Source of the DNA: Girardia tigrina
Lineage: Eukaryota
Assembly: GCA_001938485.1 (NCBI GenBank)
Contig: MQRK01250505.1
Location: forward strand, 12,567-66,996
Direction: 5' to 3'
DNA: 54,430 nucleotides
Within the stretch, counting starts at the first letter, position 1. Every line of letters starts with the position of its first letter. Position numbers and translations under genes: made by a program. Of this stretch, positions 1-53,090 are shown one piece after another. The notes under the pieces were generated by a model. That model did not search any database, was not told where the DNA came from, and saw only the letters and a program-made list of their open reading frames with translations.

Positions 1-1349
1 ATAGCTATCATATTAATTTCTTTTATTTAAAATATTGTTATATAACATGAGTAATATATATATACTAAATTACAGAGATATATCTTTAATAATAGAAAAG
101 ATAGGGCTTTATTTAAAAACAGTGATAATTATATGACTCAGACTGTATATATATATAATATTAAAATGTTATGTATTATGGTTACGGTAACCATGATACT
201 TTTGGTGGTTGATGTTTAGGCTCAGGTACTTTTGGTGATTATGCAGTTGTTATGTATTATATTTATGTATGTTTGAAGTACAATTGGAGTGTTTACATGT
301 CGTTTTAACATCTAAAATAAAAGGTTATGTATCTTGGTTACGATAACCATGGTACTTGTGATTGATAGTTAGGTACATTAGGCGATTCATGAGGTATTGT
401 TTGATGGTAAACAACATACATATATCATTTGGGTTTCATATATATACGATAAAATTTTTGAGCACTTTTTTGAGAATTTCAGAAATGTTTGAAAAAATCG
501 ATTTATCAGCACTTTTTCGAAAAAGTTGATATGGAATATAAATGTACGTATATGTATTACTATTCAAGTGCATATGGTTTTTATACATTTTGAATAAATT
601 TAAAATTTTAATAATTTAATTATACAAATTTTCCAATAAAATATTTAATTAATTTTTTATTTACAAACATTTTATAAATCTGTTTTTGAAATTTTTGGTT
701 AAACTTTTTACATTAATTAATTTTAATCATTATTTTAAAAAATTGAGAATTATATTCTCCATAAAAAGTTTTCTATATGTAGTTATATAATATTATTAAC
801 TTAATTAATTTATTAATTTATATTATTAACTGGTATATTTTATCAAACAAAATATATTTTAAATTCAAAAAAATCATTTATTTAAAATTCATTTAAAAAT
901 TATTTTATCAAAAGCAACCATCTAAGCAGAGCACAGAAAAAAGGCGAATTTGATCGACCAAGATAATAATTATTTTATAGTTTCAACAAAAGAAAATTAT
1001 AAAATTTAATAATTTTAATAAATAAAATTTCATTTTTAAAAGCAAAGAATTTTCTTAATATTTTAAAAACTGATTTTTAGTATTAATGATTTCTTTTTAA
1101 AATGAAATAAAAATAATTAATTATTTAATATTTATTAATTTCAAATAAATTAATTAATCATCTAAGCAGGGATGTACCTTTTATTAGTGCAATTTTTCAG
1201 GTAGTGTACTTTAATTTGTGTACTTTAAATGTTAAACAATAAATTTGTGTAACATTTATTGTTATATATTATATTTAATGTTGTATAACTTAGTTTTGTA
1301 TATATTTTACTAATAAATTTATTAGTCTTTTCATAGCGATATATATACA

Positions 1350-1655
1350 TAGGGTTTTTAAGGCCATTTTGGGCGTACAATGTACACCCAAAACTTTGGT
1401 TATTTTTAGGTAAATCATGGGTTCATAAAAAAAATACACACACTGCTATTCCACACACTCTCTCTTCCTCTCGCATATACATGCTCCTACTCAAGGTTAT
1501 TTATAATTGTATACTTATTTAATAATTAAATGACATACTTTTGTTCTTAACCCTTTAAATCCAGTGTGCATGTGTGATGTAACAATTTTTGAGTAAAAAT
1601 AAATATTATACTGTATACCCACATTTTCTTAGGTTACACCCTGCTGGAAACCCTA
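1350..1655. mobile_element. Short TIR element (MITE, possibly hAT-like)
   Basis: Begins TAGGGTTTTTAAG at ~1350 and ends CTGGAAACCCTA at ~1655, forming imperfect inverted termini. No ORF. Confidence 0.4.
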
Positions 1656-1664
1656 AAAAAACGC

Positions 1665-1714
<50 letters not shown>

Positions 1715-2440
1715 GGTTCCGAAAAAATACATGTGAACACTTTTGATAAAATTTTATAAAGGAAAAATTTTAAATAATTCTTTTAGTAAAATTATTAATT
1801 TCAAACAAAATAATATTTAGTTTAACAAACCTTGGAATTAAAAATTATAAATGTTTGTTTTACTTCATCAAAAATTATAAATATTTTACTCTTTGTTTTA
1901 TCTCATCAATTTTCAAGGCTGAGGAAAATTACTATATAAACAACATCAAATCTAGTTTTAGTTTGCCCAAAAATACTTGCAAGAAATCTAACTAAGAAGA
2001 GTCGTGTTAACAAGTAACGTAAAAACTTATTTTATTTTTATTTTATTAAAATATTAATCTTACAAACCATAAGTACGCCGTATGGGAGAAGAAGGTTTGT
2101 TTTAAATTACAATATCGTTTGTTTTGGGAGATTCACGGTTTTTACTGTAATCTATTAACTCATACGAAATAATGTTTTGTGTTTTGTTCTGTCATCAAGA
2201 ATTGAATTATTATTATTATTTTTGTCCTGACAATATTTGTTATTTGAAATAAAGTTTCATAAAGAATTTGTGTTCATTATTCATATATTTATGTTGGAAG
2301 TCCCTTCTGATTAATTGGAGTCAGATTATGGATTAAAGATTATTGATTAAGAATTATTGATTAAAGGTTATTGATTAAAGAATAAAGAATAGAGATTTAC
2401 GATTACAGTAATATATATATATATATTACATATATATATT

Positions 2441-2491
<51 letters not shown>

Positions 2492-2950
2492 TTTAAATGT
2501 CACAAGTATGAATCCTTGTACATTTGAGAAACACATCGTCATCTCCGTACTAGAATAGCAGAACACACTCAAACAGCTCCATTCTCGATCATTTATTTAG
2601 TTGCCGTGATCGTTAAAAAATAAATTATGAAAAAGAATTCCAAGGGTTGAATAAAAATTTTGACACAAATTTCGAGCGGATGATCGCTGATGCATTATTT
2701 ATTATGAAATGAAAACAATGCTTAAATATACAAAGTGATTTATCTAAACGCATTAAAGTTTTTTTTTTAAATATTGAAATTATTTGTGGTGTAACTGTGA
2801 GAAAACCATTTCAATGACTTGTAATTTTGTTTAAATATTCATTTTTACTGAAGATGCCTGGAAGGGAAAATTAGTTTTACGATATAAAATTATTGATAAA
2901 TGGCGTTTTTGTTTTCTTTTATCTAAATTACCATTGAGCCTTATTCAAAA

Positions 2951-2987
<37 letters not shown>

Positions 2988-3598
2988 AAGGATATTTTAC
3001 CATAAGTTCTTCTGAAAACGTATCGAAATGAATATTAAGTGTGAAAGAATAAATAGCAATTTAGTGACTGCGGATGACAAATCAAGAATGCAATTTCCAA
3101 ATAAACAAGTATCATGCGATGAAATAATGGAATACAGTGGATGTAAAAGAATACATTAAAAACAAATATGATTTTTTAGAATGGTATTTCTTATCACAAA
3201 AAGGTAATTAAAAATGTAAGTTAAAACGAAGAGATAACTATAAAATGACGATATGACTTGTAACATGAGATACTGTTTATACGGAGATATGAAACAATTA
3301 AAATACCTCAAAAGTCGACAGTCTTCTGAATGATAGGTTTAAAGTCTAAAAGCAGCTTCAATAAATGATCTCGTTATTTTACTTGACCAGCAACCCTTGA
3401 TTAACTAAGTTTTGTGGGATATTTGATACACAAAAATTATCTCTGGATTAGCTTCTTCTAATGAGAATAAGATAATAATTCTTTGATTACATTTAAACAC
3501 CATTCAAAATTTTCAAAATTTTTATTTTTAAAAAATGTGATCGTCGGACAAAACAAATAATGATCAAAACAACGTATATAATATGAAATCCATAATTA

Positions 3599-5069
3599 TT
3601 GGTTCGTACCAATATTTCTGTTTGTGATCAGTAAAGGCGGAAATTACTAGCGCAGTATATAGTAACATATAAAGAGTAAAAATATGTAATAGTTAAAAAA
3701 ATATTTACAGAAAATATTTATTGAATAATTGTTGGAATATTGGTTGATTTATTTGTCTGTATGATGACGGAAATTCGAAAAAATCTTCGTTTCTATACCT
3801 TCTCCCGTTATTCACTCGGCATAACGGGAAGTAACATTTATCAGAAAATTATCTCTGTTCATGGTGCTGACAGTGTTGGAGAATCTACGATGTATCGGTG
3901 GATAACTGAATTTGACAATGGCAAGACTTCTTTTGCTTGGGAAAACTGCGGGAGAAAATCAACAAAAACAACCCCTGAAAACATTATGTTGTTCTCTGGA
4001 ATTATTAACGCCAATGGTGCAGTGACCATTGATGAAATTGAAGATGAGACATCCCTCAGTCATGGAACCATTCAGCGTATTGTGAGTGACCATTTGGGTT
4101 TTCGGTCTGTTGCATGTAAGTGGGTTCCTCATGCATTGTCAAATGATCAAAAGGTTAATCGTGTCACTGCTGCAAAGGATTGGTTGAAATATTTGAAAAG
4201 CAAACACCAACATGAACATATTTTGAAGGTGGATGAGAAGTGGTTTTAGTGGTTTTTCTCAACTTATTCTCAAACTTTAAATGGGTTCGAAGTGCGCCTC
4301 TCTTTAATATTTTTGTTGGAGGTGTTCATCGAATACAAATGCCTAGTGGGCCATTTTTGGTAAGCAGAACTGGCGATGTGGGATGAACCAAACATACATG
4401 GATGAGAAGTGGTTTTATATGAGAACTGTTGGCAAGAAAAAAGGCAACCGTTGCTGGGGCTCCCCTGATGGTGATCACAGTGAACCCATTCATGTCGTGA
4501 AGCGTAGCCAGTTTGACAGAAAAATCATGCCTGTCATCGCAGTGTCCTTCACTGGAAAATATCATTGCAAACTGCTGCAGGAGAAAGAAAGCATGAATAG
4601 CGAGCGTTATGTCACTTTTCTTGTTAATATGGAGAAGAAGATTAGTCGACATGTTTTTCCATTCAACTGGAGAAACATGATTTTCGTGCAAGATAACGCA
4701 AGGCCTCGTGTTTCCAAAGTAACATCAATGTTTCTCGCAAAAAAGAATGCTACCTTGCTCCGTCAATCACCATATTCCCTGATTATAACATCTTGGATCG
4801 CTTTATTCATTTTTACTTGGAAGATCAGCGACACAAAACCAATTTTCAATCTGCAGATGAGTTACATCAATCCATTACATCAGAACTAAAAAATATTTCT
4901 GCTGATCGATGGTCATCTAAGATGGGAAAACTGATACAATGCGTCCCTAATGTTATAAAGAAGAATGGTGATTATGAATGAATGTATTACACAGGGTTGT
5001 TTCTTTTACATTGCTCGTTAAAAATGATATTGACATTTCAAAAGTCTCATTCTTTCTGGTATGAACTAA
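3599..5069 (+). mobile_element. Mariner (DD34D) transposon, disrupted
   Basis: TA-flanked imperfect TIRs (ttggttcgtacca / tggtatgaactaa). ORF pieces carry an HTH, KWVPHAL, DEKW, QDNARP and a frameshifted PYSPDYNILD. Interrupted by an insert at 4249-4398. Confidence 0.92.
4249..4398 (+). pseudogene. 28S (LSU) rRNA fragment inserted in the mariner, flanked by a 19-bp duplication
   Basis: Contains the conserved LSU blocks TATTCTCAAACTTTAAATGGGT and GCCTAGTGGGCCATTTTTGGTAAGCAGAACTGGCGATG(T)GGGATGAACC. Flanked by the direct repeat TGGATGAGAAGTGGTTTTA at 4230-4248 and 4399-4417. Confidence 0.9.
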
Positions 5070-10440: not shown

Positions 10441-10599
10441 TGAAATTTAGCTTGATGATGAGAGTAAAAATATTTCGAAAAATGCTGTTTCACGATAAAT
10501 CTAAATTTAAATAATTGTAGAAAAATATAATAAATTAAATACGAAATATTAAAGTTTTGTTTAAATAATCGTTTCTCAAACTATAAAATTCAAAATCAA

Positions 10600-11560
10600 G
10601 TGTTCGAGTTTGATTATAGATTATTTTTGTCATCTATTTTCTACCTGAATCACCAATGGAAAATCGTAATAAGTGCATTAATGTTACGAAAAATTCTTGT
10701 ATTCTACAGTATGTGGCATGACAATAATTTTGTAGCGAAATACACCGATATCGATTATCGTGTGTTCACGTCAGCAGGCGGATATGTGAAAGCTAATCTG
10801 TCCACGTATCGCGAGAACACCTATCGCTACACACCGCTCATCGCATATTTGATGCTTCCGAATGTCCTTTTCGGACATTTATTCGGCAAATTGTTGTTTT
10901 GTTTGTGTGATTTGATATGCGTGGGTCTCATGCATTCGATTGACCGTTTGAACAAGTTCTCTAATATTTGGCTGTTCATTTCTGCAATTTGATTGTTCAC
11001 TTCGCTTATTTTCACGGTCTCTTCTCGCGGCAATGCCGAATCGTTGTTGAGGATTTTCATTTTGTCGACTTTGTTTCTGTTACAAACGAATCGAATCGTT
11101 TTCTCAGCGATTATGTTCGGTTTTTGTGTCCATTTCAAGTTCTATCCGATCATTTATTCGTTCTTGATCTATTTGTATTATGTGACGATTATCAATTTCT
11201 TAACTTGATTTTCCCAATAGAAATCAATTGAAATTTGTGTTTGCTACTCTTGTGTCATTTGTGTTGATTTCGAGTCTTTTTTTAGCGGTTGTATGGATGG
11301 GAGTTCGTTTACCATTCGTACTTGTATCACGTACTTGTATTTACGGGTGGATATTAAACATATTTTTTCAGTTTTTTTACGCTCAATATTTACTATCGAT
11401 TACTCGTTATAAAGCGATTTTCGGACTTTGTGCTTTTATTCCCCAATTGACAATTCTGTGCTCCTTTAGTTGGAAACATCGATCTGATTTGAATTTGAGT
11501 TAGTTTTAATGTACGATTGGGTTTGTGGCGTTTAATAAAAAAAATTGGGGAGCCTCACAG
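10600..11560 (+). pseudogene. PIGM: GPI mannosyltransferase I (PIG-M/Gpi14) pseudogene, intronless
   Basis: Motifs KYTDIDYRVF, TYRYTPL, GKLLF..CD, SSRGNAES, VHFKFYPIIY and FIPQ. In-frame TGA at 10990-10992, further stops and a frameshift after ~11200. Confidence 0.88.
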
Positions 11561-11828: not shown

Positions 11829-12290
11829 ATGAACGTCCTCGGAATCGATATCAGTACGAAATCCGTAAAAGTTATTTTAAGCATTGCCAAAGATAAAACA
11901 ATACTGAACTATCGATAAAAGACACTAATTCCACGATTATAAATCAAAATCAATTTTATCACGCGCAAAATGTTGACAAAATATTCGAAGCAATTCGAGA
12001 GATATTAAATGAAATGAAGGGTGACGGTTTGAATAATGTGAGACATATTTGAATATCGGGACAAATGCACGGTGCTTTGTTTTGGAATGACGACAAGGAC
12101 GAGTCGGGCTACAATCGACACTCAAATTTGATTATCTGGATGGATCAGAGATGTAATACCGATTGTTTCATTGAGTCTCTACCGAAAATGCCGTCGTATT
12201 TGATTATAGAAATGGTCGTTAACGGACAAAATTTGATTGAGGGCACAGAGATTGGGTCTCAGATCACCGAAAAACAATGTGAGATGATTT
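11829..12290 (+). pseudogene. SHPK: FGGY-family sugar kinase N-terminal domain, most like sedoheptulokinase; pseudogene
   Basis: MNVLGIDISTKSVK, then I*ISGQMHGALFW and SNLIIWMDQRC. Contains stops and frameshifts and is 3'-truncated. The subfamily call is less sure than the family call. Confidence 0.7.
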
Positions 12291-12769
12291 TTTATTTGTC
12301 CCTACGACCCTTAGTCACCCTTCAACCCAGAAGCATTGCAATCACGTTCGACCTGCACCCAATCTGTTATAAATGCTATCTTGTTTAAAATTCACTTCAA
12401 ATATTTATTTATTAAACAGCTTTCAATAAAATAATGAAAACTTTAACCGTCGATTAAAATGATTAGTCGAAATTCTGTATTAAAATTCACAAAAAAAATT
12501 ACATTATCAATTATCTACCCTCATTTTGTTAATGTTTTACTATTCCCAAAAGAGATAATTAATATTTTAGTATTCTCAATATCCGAAATGGAAAACTGAT
12601 AATAATTAATTAGTTAAAAACAGAACAAAATTACTCTCTCAGATTTCCCGTTCCTTGATTTTCTTTTTTTCCTAAAATTCTTTAAAATTGGTTATTAATC
12701 TCTGATTTTGATTTTTATCATTATCTTTATGATCTTCATTTTAAATAATATCCTTATCCATGTTATTAT

Positions 12770-13868: not shown

Positions 13869-15140
13869 TTAGGGTGAACCAAAAGTCTTTTCGTATTTTT
13901 TATTAAAAATTTAAACATAATTTTACAAATAAAAAACATTTAAGTTTCAAAGTAAAGGCCATTTGAATCTATAGCTTGAACCCATCTATGGGCAAGTTGT
14001 GCGATCCCGCTGCGGTACCAATCCTTGTTCTTAGAAGCGAAGAACTGGTGACACCCGTTTTCGACTTCGGCTAGATTATTGAAGCTGTGACCACGAAGAA
14101 AGTGTGCCATAGAGCGGAAAAGGTGATAGTCGGATGGCGCAAGATCCGGATTATACGCAAGGTGTGGAAGAAGTTCAAAGGCATCGCGATTTTTGATTTT
14201 TTCCTTTGTTTATTTGGAGGTGTGCAGTTTTGCATTGTCCTGTTGTCGAAGAACTCGCTTTCGATTGATCAAAGCGGGGTATTTCTCGCCAAGTGCCGTA
14301 TACATTCGATCAAGTTGGGCGCAGTAAAGGTTAGCGTTGATAATACGACCATTTGGAACCAACTCGAAGTTAATCAAGCTTTCGAAATTCCACCAAACAC
14401 ACAAAAGTGCCTTCATTGAGAAAAGATCTCGCTTTGCTACCGGTTTCGCCATTTGTCCGTGGTCCAACCATTGATTTTGTTGGTCTGGATTACTGAAGTA
14501 AACCCACCTTTCATCGCAAGTTACAATTTGACGGATGAAACAGTCATCACGCGCATTTTCAAGCAATTTTTGACAAGTTTCGAAACACTTTTCGGCTTGA
14601 ATTTGAGTCAATTCATGAGGCACTTCTCGACATTGTCTATTGACCTTACCAAGAGCATGAAGGTGTCGTACAATGAATTTTTGAGGAATATCGAGTTCGG
14701 CCGACAATCTTCAAGTACTTATTGGCGGATTTTTCTCCACGGCTTCACAAATTGCTCAGGAATCTACGGTGATAGGTGGGCCTGAAAGTGCATTGTCTCC
14801 GAGGTCAATGTCACCTTCGTTGAACCTTTTGAACCAATTTTGTGCAGTACGATTTAAGACCACATTATCGCCTTCAACTTCGCATATCTTCTTTGTTGCT
14901 GCAGTTGCGTTTAAGCCCTGTTTTCAGTAATGGCGTAAAGGAACACGAATTTCAAAATTTTCCATGATTTTTCTAAAAGACCATAAAAATTATATTAACG
15001 AATAATTAGAAGTTTTAATATGTATGATGATTAGCTTTAAAAACATATAACACATGTATATAAGATATCTTTATGTGGTAATAAGAAACAATGGAACAAA
15101 AAGACGTAGAAAATACGAAAAGACTTTTGGTTCACCCTAA
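13869..15140 (-). mobile_element. Full-length mariner (DD34D), transposase pseudogenised
   Basis: Perfect ~31-bp TIRs TTAGGGTGAACCAAAAGTCTTTTCGTATTTT with TA on both sides; 1272 bp long. Motifs VPHELT, VTCDERW, QDNAKLH, AYNPDLAPSDYHLF. Frameshifted. Confidence 0.96.
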
Positions 15141-20221: not shown

Positions 20222-20364
20222 TGGCGACCACGCCAGGAAAAAATCCATTCTGAATACAATGAAAGTGTTTTAAAATGAATTAAAATTTTTATTCAAATTG
20301 AAAAAATAAAATTTATTTATTAAAAAAAGGTTTAAAAAAACATTGTATATAATTATATATATAA

Positions 20365-21400
20365 AATTCATGAATGGTCTTCATCCTAATATTAAATTTA
20401 CCACAGAATTGGAAGTAGATAATAAACTTCCCTTTCTGGACATTCTTGTCACTAGGATGAATGGAGGCTATAAAACTGAATTATTCAGAAAGGCAACAGA
20501 TACAGGTCTTTACACAACACCACAGAGTTTTTGTGAGGAAAAATATAAAGAGGGTATGATAAAAGGGCTTGTTTACAGAGTTTGGAATTTGTCGTCCAGT
20601 TTTGAAACTGCAAATCAGGGTTTAAATATTCTTAGAAGGCGCTTAAGGGACAATATGTATACAAACAAGCAAATAGAACACAATATTAGGGTAACATTAG
20701 ACAAATTATGTACAGATGTATGAGTTAAAAAACAATTAAAAGAAGAAAATACTGAAGAATACAAACAAATCATTAAAATTCCATATTCTGAAGGATTTAG
20801 AGCGTTTAAGAAGAGTATTTGTAGAACAATAAGTAGTACTNNNNNNNNNNNNNNNNNNNNNNNNNNNNNNNNNNNNNNNNNNNNNNNNNNNNNNNNNNNN
20901 NNNNNNNNNNNNNNNNNNNNNNNNNNNNNNNNNNNNNNNNNNNNNNNNNNNNNNNNNNNNNNNNNNNNNNNNNNNNNNNNNNNNNNNNNNNNNNNNNNCA
21001 CTCGCAAATGAGTCGATCGAGTAAGGTTCTTGATCATTGGTTATGTTGTAAGGATAGAACCTCATCCATTTCAAAAGAGGAGTTTTCTGTTTTACAAAAG
21101 GGTTTTGATTCACATTATGAACGGCAGCTTTGTGAATCTCTACTAATAAGACACTACAACCGATCAATTAACATTCAGAATGGGCAAAGTAAGGTTATTT
21201 CAATACTTAAAATTTAATTAAAATATTTTTGCCATTATTACTCAATAATACTTTAATAAATAATAATATTTAATCCCTAATATACCTTTTAAAGTTAATG
21301 TATATATTAAAATTGTTTTCGAATTACTGATGATGATGTGTGTAAACATAGAAACATGTCCAATAATTATATAAAAATGCTTTATATAATTATATATAAA
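20365..21400 (+). mobile_element. Penelope-like retroelement, 5'-truncated (RT C-terminus, GIY-YIG C-terminus, pLTR)
   Basis: LHPNIKFTTELE...LPFLDILV...FRKATDTG, then RQLCESLLIRHYNRSINIQ. A hammerhead follows. TATATAATTATATATA occurs at both ends (possible TSD). Confidence 0.9.
21322..21365 (+). ncRNA. Minimal type I hammerhead ribozyme (degenerate)
   Basis: CUGAUGA at 21327, short stem II, then GAAACAUGUC with palindromic ACAUGU. Mismatches in stems I and II. Confidence 0.7.
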
Positions 21401-21840: not shown

Positions 21841-22374
21841 AAAATTTGTGATTGGTCTGTAAAAGAAGAAGTTGTTAAACTTACCATGGGGATCTTCCAA
21901 CCCAGAAAAACATACAAAAAAGTAGAAGAACTTGTGAATATACTAACAAAAGAAAAATTGTCTAAAAAAGAACTACCCAACCTTGCCTGTTTAAATATGG
22001 TTGACAGTTATGAAATCAAAAAAGAATTAAAACTGAAAGGAACAACTGAAACCAAAGATATAATAATATTATTAATGAAAAAAATTTTTTATAAAAACAA
22101 CCACGTTTTTCAAGCATTACCAATGTACTAAAAAGAGGAAAATAATTTTTTTCTAGACATGTGAGAAATTTTATACCTAACCCAAAAACGTGGGGCGGAT
22201 TTCNNNNNNNNNNNNNNNNNNNNNNNNNNNNNNNNNNNNNNNNNNNNNNNNNNTTATTTTCCTCTTTTTAGTACATTGGTAATGCTTGAAAAACGTGGTT
22301 GTTTTTATAAAAATTTTTTTTTATTAATAATATTATTTAACTATTTTTAGTTATCATTTAGGAATTTTTTTTTC

Positions 22375-22998
22375 AAAATTTTTTTTATCAAGTTGTATTG
22401 TCATCGGAAGCAAGCCTGTATAAAACTTCATTCATGAAAATAAGCGAAAAGATTGCTATTTAATACAGTGTATAAATCTGTAGATAATCGTAAGTGGTCT
22501 TTTGCAAAACAAATTAGAAAAAAATATTTTTTTTCAAAGTTTTTTTATCAAATTGTATTGTCATCGGAAGCAAGCCTGTATTAAACTTCATTCATGAAAA
22601 TAAGCGAAAAGATTGCTATTTAATACAGTGTATAAATTTGTAGATAATCGTAAGTGGTCTTTTGCAAAACAAATTAGAAAAAAATATTTTTTTTCAAAGT
22701 TTTTTTATCAAGTTGTATTGTCATCGGAAGCAAGCCTGTATAAAACTTCATTCATGAAAATTATCGAAAAGATTGCTATTTAATACAGTGTATAAATTTG
22801 TAGATAATCGTAAGTGGTTTTTTGCAAAACAAATTAGAAAAAAATATTTTTTTTCAAATTGTATTGTCATCGGATGCAAGCCTGTATAAAAAAATTCAGC
22901 TCAATTGGATGACTGAAAGTGGTCGAAAAATCAATCGCAAGATTTGTTCCAGACAGACAAACAGACAAGAAAGCAAGCTAATAAAAACGTGGTAAAAA
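22375..22998 (+). repeat. 160-bp tandem repeat (about 3.2 units) within a Helitron/Helentron-like non-autonomous element
   Basis: GTATTGTCATCGG recurs at 22395, 22555, 22715 and 22861. Followed by a CAGACAGACAAACAGAC microsatellite and the end AATAAAAACGTGGTAAAAA. Confidence 0.8.
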
Positions 22999-23899: not shown

Positions 23900-26800
23900 A
23901 CCAATATGTACGAACTACGTAAAATGGAAAGTGAGGAAACAGTGGCAGCATATACGACGTTAAATAAACAAGATAATTGGAACACCGTAACTAGACGCAA
24001 AGCTGTACACAATGAAAGAACCCGGTATATACATTACGAACACAACAATAGGAACCAAGGAAATAATGGATTCAAACCGAAAAGTAATTATTACAGAACT
24101 GTAAAATGTTATGCGTGACAAGAAGAAGGCCACATAAGAAGAGATTGCCCAAATGTGAAGTGTACTCACTGCAACAGAAATGGCCATTATAGAACTCAAT
24201 GTTATCTCAACAAGAATAGATTTCAGGAAAGAAAACAGTACAGTAGAAACAGCGATTGGAAGAAAGCAAATAATACAGCATTCCGTAATAGACCTCAAAA
24301 TCATCGATACCCAGTTGAGGAAATTGATGAATGCAATGACGACTGCAAATACGAAGAGATTAGATCAAATCAAGGAAAGATAATAAAAAGGGGGATCTCA
24401 GATAAGTGACAAAAGTATGAAAAGGATCAGGGAAACGAGGAGACACAATCACAAGGAGAGATGATCAATGTGCTTCATTAAGTGATGAAATTAAGTATGA
24501 TTTTGCGTGTGATTGTGTGTGTGAATGTGTGTGTGATATCATATGTAATAGTATGACTGGAAATAACTCCCTCGAAGTTTGTAAATTAGATTGTTGGAAA
24601 GAGGAATGTGAAGAAAACTATTTTAGTAGTAAAATGGAAGAAAAAAGAAACAAAACGAAGAATGAAGAACTTTTAACAATAACAAAACTTAACATTAAAT
24701 GTGACAAACTGGATGGTAGACCAAGTATAGATTTTTACATTAAAAATAGAGAAGTACACTGTCTTTTAGACACCGGTGCTAGAGTAAATGTGATTGAAGC
24801 AAGTTTAATTAAAAACATACTAAACATTAGGACTGGATAATCGCGAAGACGTTTAGTATGCGCAAATGCTTTGGAATTAATAAATTATGGAACAGTACTC
24901 TTGAAGATTAAAATTGAAGGGAACCAAAAGAATATAAAATTCTATGTTGTCAAAGGAATGAACCCAGAAATGATAGCAGGAGTGGACTTTTTGGATAATT
25001 TTGGGATAAAGCTGATGAAGAAATCAATACAAAATAGTGATATATTTATTATGAGGGATAGCCCATCCGATGAAGACAGATTGAAAAGGATAACAGACCT
25101 ATACGAGGTAAGGTCGATGATCAGTAGATGAACATGATAAAAAAGTTTAAGTCGATATTCATGGCAGATAAATGGGATATTGGAAAAACATCATTGACGA
25201 AACACAAAATAGAAACTAATGGTGAACCGGTGTTAGTAAAGCCGTATAGACAACCACGGCATTTTGATGAAAAATTAGACGAAGTTATTAAAAATTTTGA
25301 AGGAAAAGATATAATCAAAAAATGTAGTTCACCATGGAACTTTCCATTGGTATGCGTCTGGAAGAAAGAGAAACAAGAAATACGAGTGTGCATGGATTTT
25401 CGACAATTAAATAAAGTTACTCTTAGACCAGCATTCCCTATGCCAAATGTGGATGATATGTTGAACACATTGAATGGTGCAAAGTATTTCACAACAATTG
25501 ACTTGTGAAACGCATACTATCAAGTTGAACTTGATGGAAAATCAAAGATTAAAACGGCATTCTCGACAAAGAATGGTCAATATTGTTTTAAAAGAATGCC
25601 TTTCGGAATAGCAGCTTTCAAGAACTAATGGTAAAAATTCTTTGGGAATTGAACTGGAAGGAAGCAGTCATATATCTAGATGATATCTTGATATTTTCTA
25701 AAGACATAAAAGAACATCTACAAAGAATAAAAAATGTGTTTTAAAAAAGCAAAGAATCAGGTGTGAGGATAAATCCAGAGAAATGTCAATTTCTAGTAGA
25801 AAAGACCAAGCTTTTGTGCTACATAGTAAGTAAAAAATGGTATAGAAACAGGTTAAACAAAGATTGATGCGATTAACAAGTTTCAAAACCCATCATGTAT
25901 TAAATATCTAAGGAGTTTCTTGGGTTTGACAAATTATTACAAGAAATTCATAAAAGATTATGCAAGATATTCGAAAGTTTTAGAAGGCGTGTGTGGTAAA
26001 AACAAGGATAAGAAAATAATATGTACAAAAGAATGTGACGAAGCTTTTCATAGATTAAAAGAAAGAATGGTTCAAACTCCAATCTTGGCGTATCCAGACT
26101 TCGATAAAGAATTTATATTGGACACAGACGCAAGTTTCGATATGATTGGAGCAGTACTGTCACAAAAAGACTCGCGTGAAAGAGAAAGAGTTATTGCATA
26201 TGGTTCTCATAAGATGAATAAACATGAGCTTGATTATTGTATTACCAGAAAATTATTACTTGCGATATATTATTTTACTCAGCATTTTAAGCATTTCTTT
26301 TATGGAAAAAGATTCTTGTTGCGAACAGACCGCAAAGCTATTACGTTTACGATGACCACAAATTACCCAATAACACCGCAATTTCAAACATGGATAAATT
26401 TTCTCAGCGGTCTTGATATGAGAATGGAATACAGGAAAGGTGAAAGACATACAAATTTAGATGTTATGTAGAGAAACTCTTGTGACTTATGCAGTCAATG
26501 CCAAACAACACATGAAGAAGCGAAGAATGGAAAGATTAAAACTCGAATTCTAGCGTTTCATGAAGAACCAAATAGTTTCAAATGGCAGAATGATAATGAA
26601 GAAATCGAACAAATTAAGAAAGATTTGAAACAAGGAAGAAAAAATAAATTGAAACTGAAAGATGGCATTGTAGCAACGGAAAATAATAAGTATTGGATCC
26701 TGATAACAAATATAACTGATTTTATTGAAGATATGCATAAAATGTTATGTCATGCTGGGAGTAAAAAGGTTTTTAACTACCTCAGAGATCATTTTGATAT

Positions 26801-27300
26801 GGAAAATATGAGAGAAAAGATAAAAGAAGTTGTACAAAGTTGCATAAATTGTCAAAAGCGAAAAACACTAACTGCGAAAACAAAAGAAAGACATATTAAG
26901 CAATTTGCAGATGAACCTTTTCAGAAGATATATATCGATTTTTGTGGCCCATTCAGGAGAAATGTTAATGGATACCAGTATATTTTGGCGATAATTGATC
27001 AATTTAGCCGATATATTAGCCTGAATGCAGTTGCTCACCAAGACGAGAGAACGCTACGGAAAATATTGCTGGATAGATGGATATATAAATATGGACCACC
27101 TAAAGAAATCCATGTGGATAGAGGCCAAACATTTGAATCAGAACTATTTAAAGAAACACTGAAGAAGTTTAAGATAGAAGTATTTTATTCAAGCCCGTAT
27201 CACCACAATACCAATGGAATTATAGAACGACAATTTAGAACAATTAGAGATGCTCTTAATGTCAGAATAAAGGATGGAACACATAGGGATTGAACGGAAA
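23900..27300 (+). mobile_element. Ty3/Gypsy LTR retrotransposon internal region (gag-PR-RT-RNase H-IN), decayed
   Basis: Two CCHC knuckles (one is CTHCNRNGHYRTQC), LLDTGA, SPWNFP..RVCMDFRQLN, YLDD, DTDAS, integrase H..H..C..C, IDFCGP and NGIIER, in Gypsy domain order. Many stops and frameshifts. No LTR pair seen. Confidence 0.96.
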
Positions 27301-34269: not shown

Positions 34270-35920
34270 GCAATTTACGAATTTGAAAAATCTCGTTATT
34301 CGAACAGATAATGTTGAATAACACAACATTACCCATTGCGTTTCAGATAAAGTTTCTGTTTTCAATATTAACGGAGACGCATAAATGTGGTTCACTGATT
34401 GAAAGGTATGAAAGGGTAGACATTATTTAATAATGAACTCCAAATATATGGAAAATGGAAAGTAAATAGGATTATTAACTAAAGTTCCACTGAGTAACAT
34501 CGAATTTGTGGCATATTCAGATAGAATATTTAAAGCCAAAGTCAAAATAGTCAAGCTAATATTAGGAAAGGTATGCGTTTCTACAGATAGTGGTTATGAT
34601 GATGAATTGAAAGCGATATTCTGCGAATGTCTACACGCTATAAGGCACAAATTAAAGCAATTACTCTCAAATATGACTTATTACTTGGGGAAAACTTTAA
34701 CTGTAGTGTTCATTTTGAGGTTAATTATGCCTCTGACAATGGAGACAGGCTGATCTTGCTTGCAGAAAACAATAGAATGAAGACAGGAAAAACATTTTAT
34801 ATACATTTGTTAATTAAATATATATGCGAAGCTACTGGACTTCTTTGTCGTAGTGAAAAAGGACATCGGAAAAGCCAAAGATATTCACAAAAAATATCAA
34901 TATGACTGTGAATGGAATCATGAGTGATCACAAATGTTTATAAAACAATAATCATTTTTTACGAAAAACTCATGTCATATAATTATGTTTTTTATTTTTA
35001 ATTTTTAAAACACATTCTCTATGAATATCTTTTTATTTAAAATTTGAATCCGGAAATATTATTTTAAAAAAGAATGAAAAACTGCCGAAAGAACGGGCCA
35101 CATCTAAAAGGATGGAGTCTAGATCATAGGTTTCCAGAAAAGTCAGGTAGTTGAAAACGGAACGCATAATCATTATAAGCGATTAAGTTGAAAAATTTAT
35201 TGAAAATGGAAATTTCAAAAAGAATGGCCAAGACTCTGAGCTCACAAGGAATCTTAGATAAATATGTTATTAACGCATGTGTCGAAGATTGCGAACGAAG
35301 AATTGCAAAAGAATTAACAAAATTTTTTCAAGCCAGACCTCTCATTGAGTTGACTGATATGACTGGTTTTTACAATATGTCCGTGTTAGATGAAAGTCGC
35401 CAATCGTTAAAGACGTACAATTATTAGTACAACACTTAATCAATGAAGAAAGGACCCAGAACAGATAGGGTGATTGCTGAGATTGTCAAGTAGACAAGAA
35501 ACTCAGTATTCAGGAAACTTGAAAATGATTTTGAATTTATTTAGAATGGAAGCTGAAACACATTTCTGACTGAACGGAAGTCAGCAATAGTAACAACTAT
35601 TTTCAAAAGGAAATGCATTCCATCAGATGCTAACAATTGCTGTGGCATATTTACACTAGAAGGTATTCATAAAGTATTTGCAAGAATTATTAGATCAATG
35701 GAAATTTTGCTTTCAAATCTTGAAGAGGCACAATAGAGGTAATTAGTACTAGAAGGAAGTATATGTAATCTTTATCGACTTGGAGAAAGATTTTGACAGT
35801 GTACATGGTGAGGTTCACTGAGCATACTTAAAAAGACTAGGAATTTCGGAAATGATAGTCAATCTAATAATCTAATACAGCATTTTGACAAGGATTTTAC
35901 AACTTTTATTATAGATTGCG
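34270..35920 (+). mobile_element. RTE-like LINE remnant: AP endonuclease and start of RT
   Basis: SDRI, LLLGENFNCSV, DNGDRLILLAENN..TGKTFY, then KSAIVTTIFK...DANNCCGI.TL..IHKVFARII. Confidence 0.75.
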
Positions 35921-39238: not shown

Positions 39239-39378
39239 GGGTTACTTGGTCCGATCAGATCGCTGTGACACAAGCATTACGGAGCAAGCATTCTCTATGC
39301 GAGCCTGGCAGACATACTTCCTCGTAGTATCCCTGGGAAACTAGAATTTGTTCGATTCCGTTTTTAGACTAGTGTCTG
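39239..39378 (+). ncRNA. HDV-like self-cleaving ribozyme (copy 1)
   Basis: P1 GGGUUAC/GUAUCCC (one mismatch), P2 CAGACA/UGUCUG, P3 UAC/GUA, L3 UUCCUC, GG for P1.1, P4 CUAGAA/UUUUAG, J4/2 CUAG. Confidence 0.7.
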
Positions 39379-39658
39379 AAGCTAGCCGATATCTGTACCG
39401 ACAGAATATTGTAGTACCAGTGGGCTTTCAATCCACTTACAAGGCTGTAGCTTACCTAAACTGAGTGTCATGGCTAGGGGAGTAGTGACACTTGATTTTA
39501 GATTTTTTAATCTTGATGAGTGGTGTTGTGAAACCGGTTTGCCGGCGGAGCTTAGGCATATTAATCCCCACATGGGAGAAGTGCCTTTTGAAGCCATTAG
39601 CGTCTCAGACCTCTTAAAAAGCTTCGGGCTTAATAACTTTATAGGATGTGAGGATCAC
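39239..39658 (+). mobile_element. ~0.4 kb non-coding retro-like element (copy 1)
   Basis: Colinear homology with 52235-52622; both copies end at TTTATAGGATGTGAGGATCAC. Confidence 0.75.
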
Positions 39659-40550
39659 CAAGCAAGAATATTTAATAATAAAATGAATGAATTTGTTATC
39701 AGAGAAATATTTATTTTTAGAGAAATTATTTTACAGTCATTTTATTATTGATTATAATTATTTTGTATATTGTTGTACTTCATTGGAACATTCATTTTTT
39801 CGTTGTTTTAATATCAATCATCATTTAAAAGTTTTTAAAAATTATAATGATATTGTAATGATATTAAAATCTAAAAATATGAAAAGAAGACTTCATTGCC
39901 GTTATTTTATTATCCAGGAGAATGAGAAGAGAATAAAAGTTTTTTCACAGTCGATGTAAGAAGAACATTAAAATAATAAAACAGAGTCTAAGAAATTAAT
40001 TCATGAAGAAAACGATTGTTCTCGGCTGTTGAAAAAAATCAATAATTTAATTTCCTCATAATTGTTAAAAGAAATTTTCATTCTTTAAAGGTAGTAATAT
40101 TTTATTGTTTTGCTATCAGAATTAAGAAAAAAAATATTTTTGTTGTGTTGTCATAATAATAATAAATAATAATATTAATAATAATAATAATATTAAAAGA
40201 AATAATAATAAAAATAATAAGATAATAATGTTATTAATACTATTATTATTATCAATAGTCATAATAATAATTGTTAGGAATTTGGGGGGCTCACATAAAT
40301 CTTTGAATTTTTATATTTAAAACCAATGAAGGAAATTTTCAAAATATTTAAAAATATTCTAAAATACATAATATATATAGAAGAAATTTTAGAGTTAACG
40401 ATATTTTTTATAAATTAAAATACAGGAACATTTTAGGGTTGAAAATATTTTAAATTAAAATTTAAAATAAGAATTTAATTATTTAAATAAACTTTAAAAA
40501 AATGGCAATTTTTACTAAAAACAAATAAACACCATTTAAAAATATATTTT

Positions 40551-40591
40551 TGATAATATATTTCGACGGTTTAACCGTCATCATCAGATCA
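40551..40591 (-). ncRNA. Minimal hammerhead ribozyme
   Basis: UGAU-CUGAUGA-U-GACGGU(UAA)ACCGUC-GAAAUAUAUU-AUCA. Confidence 0.8.
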
Positions 40592-40766
40592 CTGATTATG
40601 TTCTTTTTATATTTTTTACATAAGAAATGAATGATTACAGAATCACTTATGTAAGTCTAATCGAAAACTCTCAACTAATTTGTTAAGAGTTTTCAATTAG
40701 ACTTACGTAAGTGATTGTATAATCATTCATTTCTTATATAAAAGCAATAAAAAAGAACATAATCAG

Positions 40767-40807
40767 TGATCTGATGATGACGGTTAAACCGTCGAAATAT
40801 ATTATAA
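40767..40807 (+). ncRNA. Minimal hammerhead ribozyme
   Basis: Same core at 40771-40797, with one mismatch in stem I. Confidence 0.75.
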
Positions 40808-41159
40808 AAAACTTATTTAAATATTATTATAAAATTTTTATTTTTATAAGAATATAAAATCAAAATGAAAAGTTTAGTTTAAGATTTAAAAAAATATGAT
40901 TAATGATTAAAATAGAAACTTTATAACTGAAATATTTCTGATATGAAAATGTTTTAAAATGAATTGAAATTAATAAATTTTTACAAAATCTTTAAAGGAT
41001 AAAATTTTAATAAAAAAATATTATAAAACTAATTTTGTAAATTTCAAAAAAAAAGAAATAATAAATTAAGTATTCTTATTTATATCACATTGTCTCTGTG
41101 TATAAAAGGTTTGAACAAAAGAAAAATTGTTCCTCGAAAATTTTTTCGAAAAAATAAGT

Positions 41160-42182
41160 TATATATAATATATATGTCGAAAATGTTGGTTTGTCGGTCA
41201 CCCTATGATCAAAATGTTAAATAGCGGAGGAACCCGAGCGAATCCAAGTAAGAACATGGTCGATTTAGATAGCCCACATTAAGACGGTTCTGTCGGTGTA
41301 GCACCTTTGCCGAAAGACGCCGGACAATCGATGAATTTGATCGAAAACCGCGTAGGTCGTTAAATTGTTAAATCAACACTGATTTCGAATAATGCCGATT
41401 CGGATGATTCCTACTAGGAATTTCGTGAAAATTTTATGAAAATACTAATAAAATATTTGAGAAATGATCATTTTTATCACTTATTTACAAATTATATTGC
41501 TCTAATTTTGTTACATTGTTATATTACATTACTCTAATAATATTCTATTACGTTACTCTAATTATATTACATAAATTTTGTATAAATTTGCAAATTTTCG
41601 TTATTAATGATAAGATTATAATACCTTATACATGGTTATAGTTACGGTTAGGGTTAGGGTTAGGTTTAATGTGAGGATTAGGGGTTAGGATTATGATTTG
41701 AAGGTATAGTTAAAGTTATGGTTAAGGTAAGGTGTGAGAGTTAAGGTTAGTGGGTTATGGTTTAGTTTAGGTATAGTGCTATGTTTAGGTTTACGGTTAC
41801 GGTTTAGGTTAATTTTTTAATAATTAACTCTTTATCATTATCCTCCTACAATACTAGTTTGTTAATATTTTGGAAAAATTTTTAATGTTTACTACGATAA
41901 AATTTGACGGCAAAAAATAGAGAAAGAGTTAGTCGAAGAACGTTAGAAAGGACTTAAAAAAAGAAAGACAACTTCGATATAGAGAACGTCAGAAAGAAAA
42001 TTCTGAAGAGATTCAACGAATAAAAATGTGAAAACAAGAGATAAGCGAAGAAATTTCATATCATAAATGAAAATCCAAAGTGCTTAATTTTAATATTATG
42101 TTTGATTATGTTCATTGAAAATTTTATGAAATTATATTTTTCTTTTGATTTTTTGCGGGCCGTCGTGACGGGTAAAAACTAA
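41160..42182 (+). mobile_element. Helitron-like non-autonomous element (family A) with an internal TTAGGG-like tract
   Basis: 41180-41500 is homologous to 51420-51730. 3' hairpin CCGTC-GT-GACGG followed by AAAACTAA. Degenerate GGTTAG repeats at 41635-41812. Confidence 0.65.
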
Positions 42183-50394: not shown

Positions 50395-50620
50395 ATATAT
50401 ATAAGAAATGAATGATTATGTAATCACTTACGTAAGTCTAATCGAAAACTCTTAACAAATTAGTTGAGAGTGCTGTTTGAACATTGATTTTTGGATCACA
50501 TGATCTTATCAACAATGCTTCACATGACACTCTCTCCCAATAATTTTTCAACTAATTTGTTAAGAGTTTTCGATTAGACTTACGTAAGTGATTACACAAT
50601 CATTCATTTCTTATATATAT
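50395..50620. repeat. Inverted PLE 3'-end duplication
   Basis: ~75-bp inverted arms. The minus strand encodes WERVSCEALLIRSCDPKINVQTALSTNLLRVFD*. Confidence 0.85.
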
Positions 50621-51384: not shown

Positions 51385-52088
51385 AATATACATATAATAT
51401 TTGTCTAAAAAGTGTGTTTGTTTGTTTGTCGGTCACGCTTTTCAATGTAAAATTGCGGGCGAACCGGAGTAAATCCACTTGTATACGTGGTCAATCTGGA
51501 TAGCCCGTATCAATACAATTTTGCCAGTACTGCGCCTTTGCCTGGAAGCCGATGAAATCGATCGAAAACCGTAAAAGTCGTTAAATGGTTAAATTAACGC
51601 TGATTTCGAATAATGACGATTTTGGGGATTCCTACAAGGAATTTCGTGAAATTTTTTTATGAAAATTCTAATAAAATACTAATTTATTTTATAAATGACC
51701 TTTTGTATCACTTATTTACTAATTATATTTTTAAAAATTAATTTAGATCAAATTTGCAAAATTTCGTTTTAATCTGATTCACGGTTTGTCGATCAAGCTC
51801 AAATTTTACTATGATCTTATATATGCTGATAAAATGCGAAATAGTGGAGGAATAGTGAGTAAATCTGTGTAATGTTAAGAAAACTCTACATAGTCCGCAT
51901 CGAGACGGTTCTGTCTGTACAGCGCCTTTGCCGAAAGGCTCCGGGAGTCGATTTAACTGACTGACTGTTAAATCAACACATAATTCGAAATAATAAATTA
52001 TAATAATTACGATTTAAAAAATCAAAACAGAAACTTTCAAACTCGAAAATTCAGCTCACCCGTCATATATGACGAGTCTTTTTCTAGT
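51385..52088 (+). mobile_element. Helitron-like family A copy
   Basis: (GTTT)n near the start, palindrome CGTCATATATGACG at 52061-52074, then CTAG|T at 52084-52088. Confidence 0.75.
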
Positions 52089-52234
52089 GTTAAAATAGTG
52101 TGCGTAACATCCAAAGTAAGAAATTAGCCTACCATGAAATCCAAAATTGACAATTTAGGGAAGACTAATCTTGAATACAAATTTAACTGTCATGGGTGTA
52201 AAAACTCGTGCATTATCTCACAGTGATCAACTGT

Positions 52235-52622
52235 GCAAGCCAGGCAGACATACTTCCACGTAGTATCCTTGGGAAACTAGAATTGGTTCGAATCCGTATC
52301 TAGGCTAAAGTATCTGATAAGCTAACCGATATCTGCACCGACAGAATATTGTAGTACCAGTAGGCTTGCAATCCACTTACAAGGCTCTAATTTCCTAATC
52401 TGAGTGTCATAGCTGTGGGAAGTATTGACTTTGCAGTCGAGTGGTTGACTGCATCACATAGACTCTTGATTTTTTATCAGGATAGTGGTATTGAGAAACC
52501 GGTTCGCCGGCGACGCTTAGGCATGTCAATCCCCAGTTAGTGGAGTGCCTTTTGAAGTCATAAGCATCTCAGGTCTCCTGGAAAACATCAGGCTTAATGA
52601 TTTTATAGGATGTGAGGATCAC
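52235..52622 (+). mobile_element. ~0.4 kb non-coding retro-like element (copy 2)
   Basis: Homologous to ~39295-39658. Confidence 0.75.
52245..52316 (+). ncRNA. HDV-like ribozyme core (copy 2; P1 5' strand not identified)
   Basis: CAGACA-UAC-UUCCAC-GUA-GUAUCCU-UGG-GAAA-CUAGA...UCUAG-GCUAAAG-UAUCUG. Confidence 0.62.
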
Positions 52623-52647
52623 ATTATCTTAAAACACGAATTAGTGA

Positions 52648-53090
52648 ACACTCACAGTTGAAAAGATCGAGTAAGGTTTTTGATCACTATAGATGTTGCA
52701 AAGATATGTGACACTTCATCTATTCCAAAAGATTAATTTTCTATTCTTCAGAAGAATTTCGATTCACATTATAAGAGGTTGTATTGTGAATGATAGCTAA
52801 TAAGACACTATAACCCATTGATATATATATCCAAAATGGAAAAAGTAAAGAGGCCTCAATATTAAATATCTTTATAAAATAAATTAAATTAATGTTTATA
52901 ATCTTTTTCTATAAAATTAAATAAAATTAAACTTTAATATTCATTTTAAGATCTTTATGACCTTATATACTTTAAAAATGAAAAAAAATATTAAAATAAA
53001 TAACAAAAAAAAATAAAGTTACTGATGATGGTCAAAGATTGTGATCGAAACATGTCTATTGTTGAATTTTTAAAAAATGCTTTAAAAAAA
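52648..53090 (+). mobile_element. PLE 3' fragment
   Basis: Homologous to 20999-21217 (GATCGAGTAAGGT..GATCA, GATTCACATTAT); a hammerhead follows. Confidence 0.8.
53018..53060 (+). ncRNA. Minimal hammerhead ribozyme
   Basis: CUGAUGA at 53022, stem II GGUCA/UGAUC, GAAACAUGUC. Stem I is weak. Confidence 0.72.

Follow-up and report, generated by a model that had tools for sequence, protein, structure and literature searches.

Two SINE copies and their surroundings

The window, by which we mean the whole 54,430-nt stretch of DNA that was analysed, is AT-rich eukaryotic sequence from an assembly of 1.43 Gb. It holds two copies of a non-coding SINE which are 84% identical to each other, and copy 1 is also 83-84% identical to two copies of subfamily A (subfamilies A-E are labels of this analysis). 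A sequence-only reading had proposed a two-copy element headed by an HDV-like ribozyme. Its repetition extends beyond chance: 41 genome matches were obtained (40 scored of 1819 candidates), and a 52-nt head pattern gave 90 matches as against 0 for its reversed control. The features of the two loci are as follows.

39265..39280, + strand: target motif of copy 1, GTGA at -16..-13 and TTAC at -4..-1
39281..39289, + strand: likely 5′ TSD of copy 1, decayed, 6/9 matches to 39659-39667
39290..39658, + strand: SINE copy 1, about 5 nt missing at the 5′ end, P1 5′ strand gone
39309..39378, + strand: HDV-like core of copy 1, with P2 39309-15/39372-78, P3 39316-18/39326-28, L3 39319-25, P1 3′ strand 39329-35, P1.1 GG 39336-37, P4 39341-45/39363-67, C39369 at the predicted catalytic position and a shortened J4/2
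39610..39658, + strand: 3′ tail of copy 1, LINE-tail-like, ending in CAC, no poly(A) or microsatellite
39659..39667, + strand: likely 3′ TSD of copy 1, from sequence
52077..52873, + strand: decayed Penelope-like element (tblastn), split by copy 2 at its YIG motif
52196..52211, + strand: target motif of copy 2, GTGT at -16..-13 and GTGC at -4..-1
52212..52220, + strand: 5′ TSD of copy 2, 8/9 matches to 52623-52631
52221..52622, + strand: SINE copy 2, full length, with P1 52221-27/52265-71, L3 52255-61 and C52305 at the predicted catalytic position
52623..52631, + strand: 3′ TSD of copy 2

The place of the decayed 5′ TSD of copy 1 is likely the one set by the target motif, whose 7.4 bits are reached at 68 of the 107258 positions scored in the window. 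With its P1 5′ strand and two bases of J4/2 missing, copy 1 probably has a catalytically dead ribozyme. In copy 2, P1 and P2 are each paired at 6 of 7 positions and the ends carry a GTGATC/GATCAC inverted repeat; the Penelope fragment around it corresponds by tblastn to P0121 residues 404-449 upstream and 453-535 downstream.

Several parts of the earlier description were recovered. Both copies end at GGATGTGAGGATCAC (39658 and 52622), and the P2 strands, the GG, P4, C39369 and two downstream hairpin sequences are all present. P3, L3 and the P1 3′ strand lie in another register than the proposed one: P3 is ACU/AGU, L3 is UCC(A/U)CGU and the P1 3′ strand is 39329-35. The 5′ boundary had been placed at 39239, which none of the 40 other matches reaches, the earliest starting at query position 96 (window 39275). 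The strand 39239..39245 (+) assigned to P1 is flank DNA unique to copy 1, outside the element, and its pairing is at chance level: a G-started 7-mer pairing 6/7 with 39327-33 occurs in 205 of 1062 100-nt windows. Cleavage before G39239 would fall in the same flank. With this P1 two dependent claims are lost, since both rest on the copy 1 flank: a long J1/2, which actually measures ~16 nt, and a folding switch formed by the upstream AAGTACCCT (fold z = 0.05 against shuffles). The true P1 strand is CAGGGAT, the start of intact copies, which copy 1 has lost.

Other elements share the window. A young Penelope-like fragment at 20331-21214 is 91-96% identical to P0121, its middle reading N, and decayed AP-endonuclease LINE fragments at 34496-35872 are 26-40% identical to P0001. 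A dispersed repeat (D10, D11) lies at 41266-41435, 51497-51656 and 51887-51944, twice upstream of copy 2, while three 160-nt tandem units and several MITE-like inverted repeats are found at 22363-22865, 22062-22337, 40540-40818 and 50395-50620. Two fragments at 3725-4889 and 14210-14710 presumably belong to Tc1/mariner-like transposases, and the decayed frames at 24421-27293 are taken to be Gypsy-type protease, RT, RNase H and integrase. Sequences like PIG-M mannosyltransferase and FGGY sugar kinase (10534-10992 and 12053-12388) are presumably host exons.

Ends, predicted fold and first base pair of the SINE family

The family has discrete ends, TSDs, covarying helices, a probable LINE partner, a target motif shared with that partner, and repeated insertions at the same nucleotide. 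Intact copies are non-coding, measure 350-420 nt and fall into five subfamilies with 62-93% identity between them; A, B, C and E start with CAGGGAT, and D with GGGGAC. Loci were chosen by element sequence only (29, then 70 of the 90 head-pattern matches, then 25 more). They yielded 98 two-ended copies at 69 distinct sites, a set confined to copies with a recognisable tail. TSDs were counted from 9 nt upwards, with one mismatch allowed; by this measure 46 of the 69 sites carry one, compared with 25 of 1380 control 9-mers; the lengths are 9 (23 sites), 10 (16), 11 (5), 12 and 14. Some SINEs stand in tandem, spaced by the TSD (L006, L038, L112). No tRNA gene was detected in the 7 loci searched. 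The assembly contains identical duplicate contigs (L232-L235 and L240/L241 are 99.9-100% identical over their full length), and raw counts are thereby inflated.

At the family level P1, P2, P3, P1.1 and P4 occur in the order of a nested double pseudoknot. Over 46 aligned heads, P2, P3, P1.1 and P4 are 94.2% paired, as compared with at most 50.7% in slid-register controls, and two-sided changes affect 42 cells, where shuffles give 12.7. P1 stands outside this count, its 5′ strand being out of register in that alignment, and the 42 cells trace to about 4-5 inherited changes, not to 42 events. Compensatory changes occur in P2, P3 and P1.1. The C at the catalytic position (41 of 46 rows) and the U..G of L3 are kept by the majority in all five subfamilies. 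Among the 100 matches listed, a T replaces the catalytic-position C in 10 and a P4 C in 7, as expected from neutral decay. The proposal of a ribozyme-headed SINE is supported by TSDs and by covariation in the family alignment, self-cleavage being predicted.

The Rfam HDV models gave no match to SINE heads at E up to 10, and the best match overall was a LINE head (L148) which scored 28.5 bits with the F. prausnitzii HDV model against a gathering score of 44 (E 0.098). A loose HDV descriptor was unspecific, with 11 loci in 10 shuffled windows and 0 of 6 LINE heads found; a second parse of LINE heads recovered 7 of 9. Two other readings of the head were dropped. A circularly permuted, retrozyme-style P1, in which GAGGAT of the tail pairs with the core, was abandoned as intact copies carry a 5′ P1 strand, and a lineage from a dead master was abandoned as its four C-to-U matches are one duplicated locus. 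Separately, Penelope flanks ~30 nt upstream of the insertion (for instance L125:340-352) can pair 6-7/7 with the SINE P1 3′ strand, an R2-like alternative P1 which also starts with C. A B-box-like GGTTCGANTCC lies in the P4 loop at window 52284-52294 and in subfamilies B and E.

The first base pair sets most of the SINEs apart from their partner. Subfamilies A, B, C and E start with a C paired to G37; subfamily D and the LINE heads start with G. CAGGGAT follows the TSD in 92 of the first 100 of 129 Penelope-site junctions (assembly duplicates included), directly in 64 and after 1-2 further bases in 28, and the other 8 are point variants of which at most two can be read as an A start. In subfamily E, L3 position 22 has become U and one G of the GGG has become A, each in 11 of 11 heads. 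These changes pair only with a 7-nt P1 3′ strand ending in G, which places G37 opposite the first C. An A1-U37 register was rejected, with 79.3% pairing and no two-sided change against 85.9% and 10 U-A rows for C1-G37; by sequence alone, it remains compatible with A and C copies. The P1 of LINE heads is 7 bp long and paired at 7/7, and in 5 of the 7 that could be parsed (9 given) the G start lies at the TSD end. Since LINE heads and subfamily D start with G, the RT is not the source of the C.

Pyrimidine-purine pairs at +1 slow HDV. The literature search, which covered sources other than Repbase and subscription papers, returned no natural C1-G37 ribozyme. The available text of PMC3774820, PMC9901934 and PMC10879173 holds no information on the +1 pair, which the figures and supplements of PMC9901934 may treat. 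We lean towards a C1-G37 variant that cuts; alternatively, the fold would be kept without cutting.

The partner LINE and a shared target motif

The sequence-only reading had recommended a search for an autonomous LINE sharing an end with the SINE, and a LINE with similar ends and the same target exists. A 3850-nt copy (L138), inserted in a Penelope site and followed by a second copy after a TSD, encodes an AP endonuclease, an RT and three C2H2 fingers in a frame that here contains stops. The partner has a short 5′ UTR and a single ORF, AP endonuclease then RT. An intact ORF (P0001) represents a sister family and is up to 100% identical to truncated copies. We call the LINE RTE-like on the basis of its architecture together with what we take to be RTE motifs. 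In a quick RT tree of 67 rows (65 of 120 homologues listed, careful search unfinished, no curated references), the partner LINE falls in a 29-row clade (SH-aLRT 99) whose members mostly have 2-4 C2H2 fingers and include a Schistosoma rodhaini protein. Metagenome searches found no relatives of P0001, and those with the alignment gave 7 loci. One of these was read (L225) and showed neither an HDV head, by the loose descriptor, nor a TSD; another was read at one end (L226). The protein cluster atlas returned only generic RT clusters.

SINE and LINE resemble each other at both ends. The LINE has an HDV-like head, and its 3′ end is a hairpin tail plus CAC without microsatellite-like repeats. The LINE tail pattern has 1197 matches, of which 31 tails were read. 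The likeness of the tails is short, about 30-50 nt, and 5 of 7 SINE tails align better to the LINE tail than all 500 shuffles do. Copy 1 is marginal: one shuffle in 500 does as well, whereas none does for five younger copies. The tail of copy 2 shows no significant similarity (326 of 500). With the decayed L138 tail only 2 of 6 SINEs beat the shuffles, and the subfamily D tail does not align. The tail hairpin has changed from GAGCC/GGCTC to AAGCC/GGCTT. Two further Penelope-site loci were observed. At L152:141-2600 a different RT element, whose motifs we take to be R2/NeSL-like, has broken into a LINE head directly behind J4/2; L140:4860-5290 holds a 425-nt LINE which has lost its interior but kept head, tail and TSD, a second route to non-autonomous copies.

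SINE and LINE insert after GTG-N10-TAC. This was assessed on 32 dispersed SINE sites (non-Penelope, non-tandem, with TSD), one of which (L094) may be a diverged Penelope copy. TAC directly precedes the TSD at 25 of the 32 (background 1.1%), GTG occupies -16..-14 at 18 (background 1.0%), and both parts occur together at 16 (background 0.014%). The total motif amounts to about 9 bits. Both window copies sit at a site of this type, and three dispersed LINE copies with TSD outside Penelope show the same motif. As the final AC is also the element's own 3′ end, it can be read as microhomology with a nick at T/AC.

There is also a hot spot. Twenty of the 69 SINE sites, window copy 2 among them (split at P0121 residues 449/453), fall on a single nucleotide within the YIG codons of a GIY-YIG endonuclease from a Penelope-like element. 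The target is predicted to encode an RT and then a C-terminal GIY-YIG endonuclease: P0121, 96% identical to the target ORF, matches RVT_1 and PF26215, and its GIY-YIG match is weak (E 0.0012, below cut-off). The Penelope site reaches 15.8 bits on a matrix built from the 32 dispersed sites, more than any of the 107258 positions of the window. With an exact pattern we counted 824 empty Penelope sites and another 439 in which the match is lost beyond the 9-mer. Fifty of the 439 were read (30 supplied by the search tool, 20 chosen by us), giving 48 distinct cases: 29 LINEs, 17 SINEs, one point change and one other. At least three LINE families use this nucleotide, the LINEs have many different 5′ truncation points, and every junction read shows insertion in sense orientation to the GIY-YIG gene. 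Of the 31 LINE tails, 5 run into Penelope and 9 into its 9-mer. The degree of targeting appears unusual for this group. As to the part of the protein that reads the target, the zinc fingers were set aside because the finger 2 helix is not the same in two LINE families that share this site, and the endonuclease seems a better candidate. The sequence-only reading contains neither the target motif nor the Penelope hot spot nor the C1-G37 pair.

Explanations and relation to known elements

We consider it likely that the window carries an old SINE with a predicted HDV-like 5′ fold, probably copied by a sequence-preferring RTE-like LINE. The element would be read through from a host or Penelope promoter, and the ribozyme would cut the transcript just 5′ of C1, where genomic copies start. 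The LINE protein would bind the 3′ hairpin tail and nick at T/AC, which lies roughly a helical turn 3′ of GTGT. Target-primed reverse transcription could then be primed on the 2-nt AC microhomology with the RNA end, and insertion would leave a 9-10 bp duplication (11-12 when AC is counted). Because the motif survives upstream of each insertion, the site can be reused, which yields tandem arrays spaced by the TSD.

How the Penelope hot spot arose admits different explanations. We incline slightly to a by-product: a sharpened RTE signature would meet an abundant young Penelope family carrying the best-matching site (the Cys and Tyr codons of CxxxY), with no adaptation. This agrees with the 49 of 69 SINE sites that lie elsewhere, and with the split signature of T-stretch plus TA already present in RTE elements (PMC13295347, PMC6007223, in their available portions). 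The matrix alone predicts a Penelope-site share of 25% for about 10000 sites. Against a by-product speak the 4-9% predicted for 1263-3000 sites, as compared with the 29% seen, and the likeness of the dispersed-site consensus to the Penelope site at about 14 of 17 positions. Since the predicted share depends on the number of Penelope sites, adaptation and coincidence are not separable here. It is more doubtful that an RTE-like LINE lineage with three C-terminal zinc fingers became adapted to the catalytic YIG codons of Penelope as its target, which would offer a harmless transcribed landing site, destroy a rival endonuclease and let the element free itself by its HDV-like ribozyme as R2 does in rDNA, the SINEs doing so through an active C1-G37 ribozyme, an exception to the rule of an invariant G1. 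Passive amplification of one SINE insertion inside a transposing Penelope would explain why many occupied sites have near-identical Penelope flanks, yet different SINE subfamilies, at least three LINE families and many truncation points meet at one nucleotide, and TSD variants match on both sides (L007, L020, L024). The differing truncation points and inserts rule out co-amplification, and we regard this origin as barely credible.

The nature of the head can also be questioned. The same SINE and LINE might exist with a C1-G37 head that no longer cuts, the fold protecting the 5′ end or aiding insertion and the 5′ end being a transcription start, for example of Pol III. G1 has been called invariant in active HDV-like ribozymes (available text of PMC8495972), and four subfamilies are without it; moreover, the structure of the R2 template ribozyme itself raised insertion (PMC11331408, in part). 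In subfamilies B and E the P4 loop contains a B-box-like GGTTCGAYTCC, with A/B-box-like motifs in J1/2 and L4, but this box is altered in A and missing in C and D. Pol III seldom starts at C. The retention of the catalytic-position C and of the L3 U..G, and the lack of a dead sub-lineage, speak against loss of cutting as well. We hold this explanation to be less likely. A retrozyme-like or circular-RNA element, as the earlier reading had suggested, or a MITE with short terminal inverted repeats would accommodate the tandem copies and the GTGATC/GATCAC of copy 2. However, the tandem copies are TSD-spaced, subfamilies A, C and D have no inverted repeat, for which the MITE reading was dropped, and 5′-truncated copies and a LINE use the same site. 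Instead of a hammerhead ribozyme in tandem monomers, the family has an HDV-like fold and copies dispersed with TSDs. In the contigs from sequencing runs, whose RNA status is mostly conjectural (best share 0.38), no back-joint was among those listed, and they say nothing of ends or expression. An origin of this kind is very unlikely. In animals, retrozymes consist of hammerhead units in tandem and are tied to Penelope ends (10.64898/2026.07.22.740005, in part).

The proposed copying of an HDV-headed SINE by an RTE-like LINE has partial precedents, described here from the accessible portions of the papers cited. HDV-like heads are known on LINEs and some SINEs and likely serve release from a co-transcript (PMC6765202). 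The heads of R2, L1Tc/NARTc, RTE and Baggins place the same nested double pseudoknot precisely on the 5′ junction; here, in contrast, four SINE subfamilies have C1-G37, and the carrier is a ~0.4 kb non-coding element. RTE-derived SINEs with LINE ends include Bov-A2, MAR4, RTESINE1 and RTE1-N1_LA (PMC3747384). Like these, the present family is non-coding, has a LINE-like head and tail and no tRNA gene was found; it differs in the ribozyme head, the unique middle body, the missing 3′ microsatellite and the sharp target motif. Perere-3 of Schistosoma mansoni is an RTE with a twister variant and is not site-specific (PMC8501958). It shares the single-ORF LINE and the 5′ ribozyme beside the TSD, although its ribozyme is a twister.

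Target choice extends these comparisons. The RTE signature Tn-TA is known from Bov-B, the Sauria SINE and plant Au (PMC13295347, PMC6007223). TA at the nick, a motif about one helical turn upstream and 1-2 nt of 3′ microhomology are common to both, whereas here GTG(T/A) replaces the upstream T-stretch, the motif reaches about 9 bits and one target gene recurs. According to the available text of PMC13295347, only Tx1 and R1 hold site-specific AP-endonuclease LINEs. Repeated insertion at one nucleotide of a multicopy target is shared with these groups, which differ from the present LINE in that its protein is RTE-like and its targeting incomplete, at about 29% of SINE sites. Other transposons are the target of some Tx1 elements. 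Our literature search, carried out outside Repbase and subscription papers, returned no RTE-like element with a GTG-N10-TAC motif and no LINE aimed at codons of the GIY-YIG type. LINEs with ribozyme heads and SINEs derived from RTE elements have been described; the sharp motif, the Penelope hot spot and C1-G37 appear, on limited evidence, to be new.

These features bear on ribozyme biology and on target choice. An active C1-G37 ribozyme, if true, would widen HDV-like descriptors, and those demanding G1 would miss it. A promoter overlapping the ribozyme, if the B-box-like sequence is one, would resemble trypanosome Pr77. RTE and Vingi systems for gene writing insert broadly (PMC13295347, PMC13708176, in part). 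A compact single-ORF LINE that combines a 9-bit split motif with an ORF still intact (P0001) and with short, natural template ends would allow a direct test of how sequence preference arose in this group. Finally, if the nuclease motif of another retroelement is disrupted time and again, this would clearly exemplify the targeting of one transposon by another.
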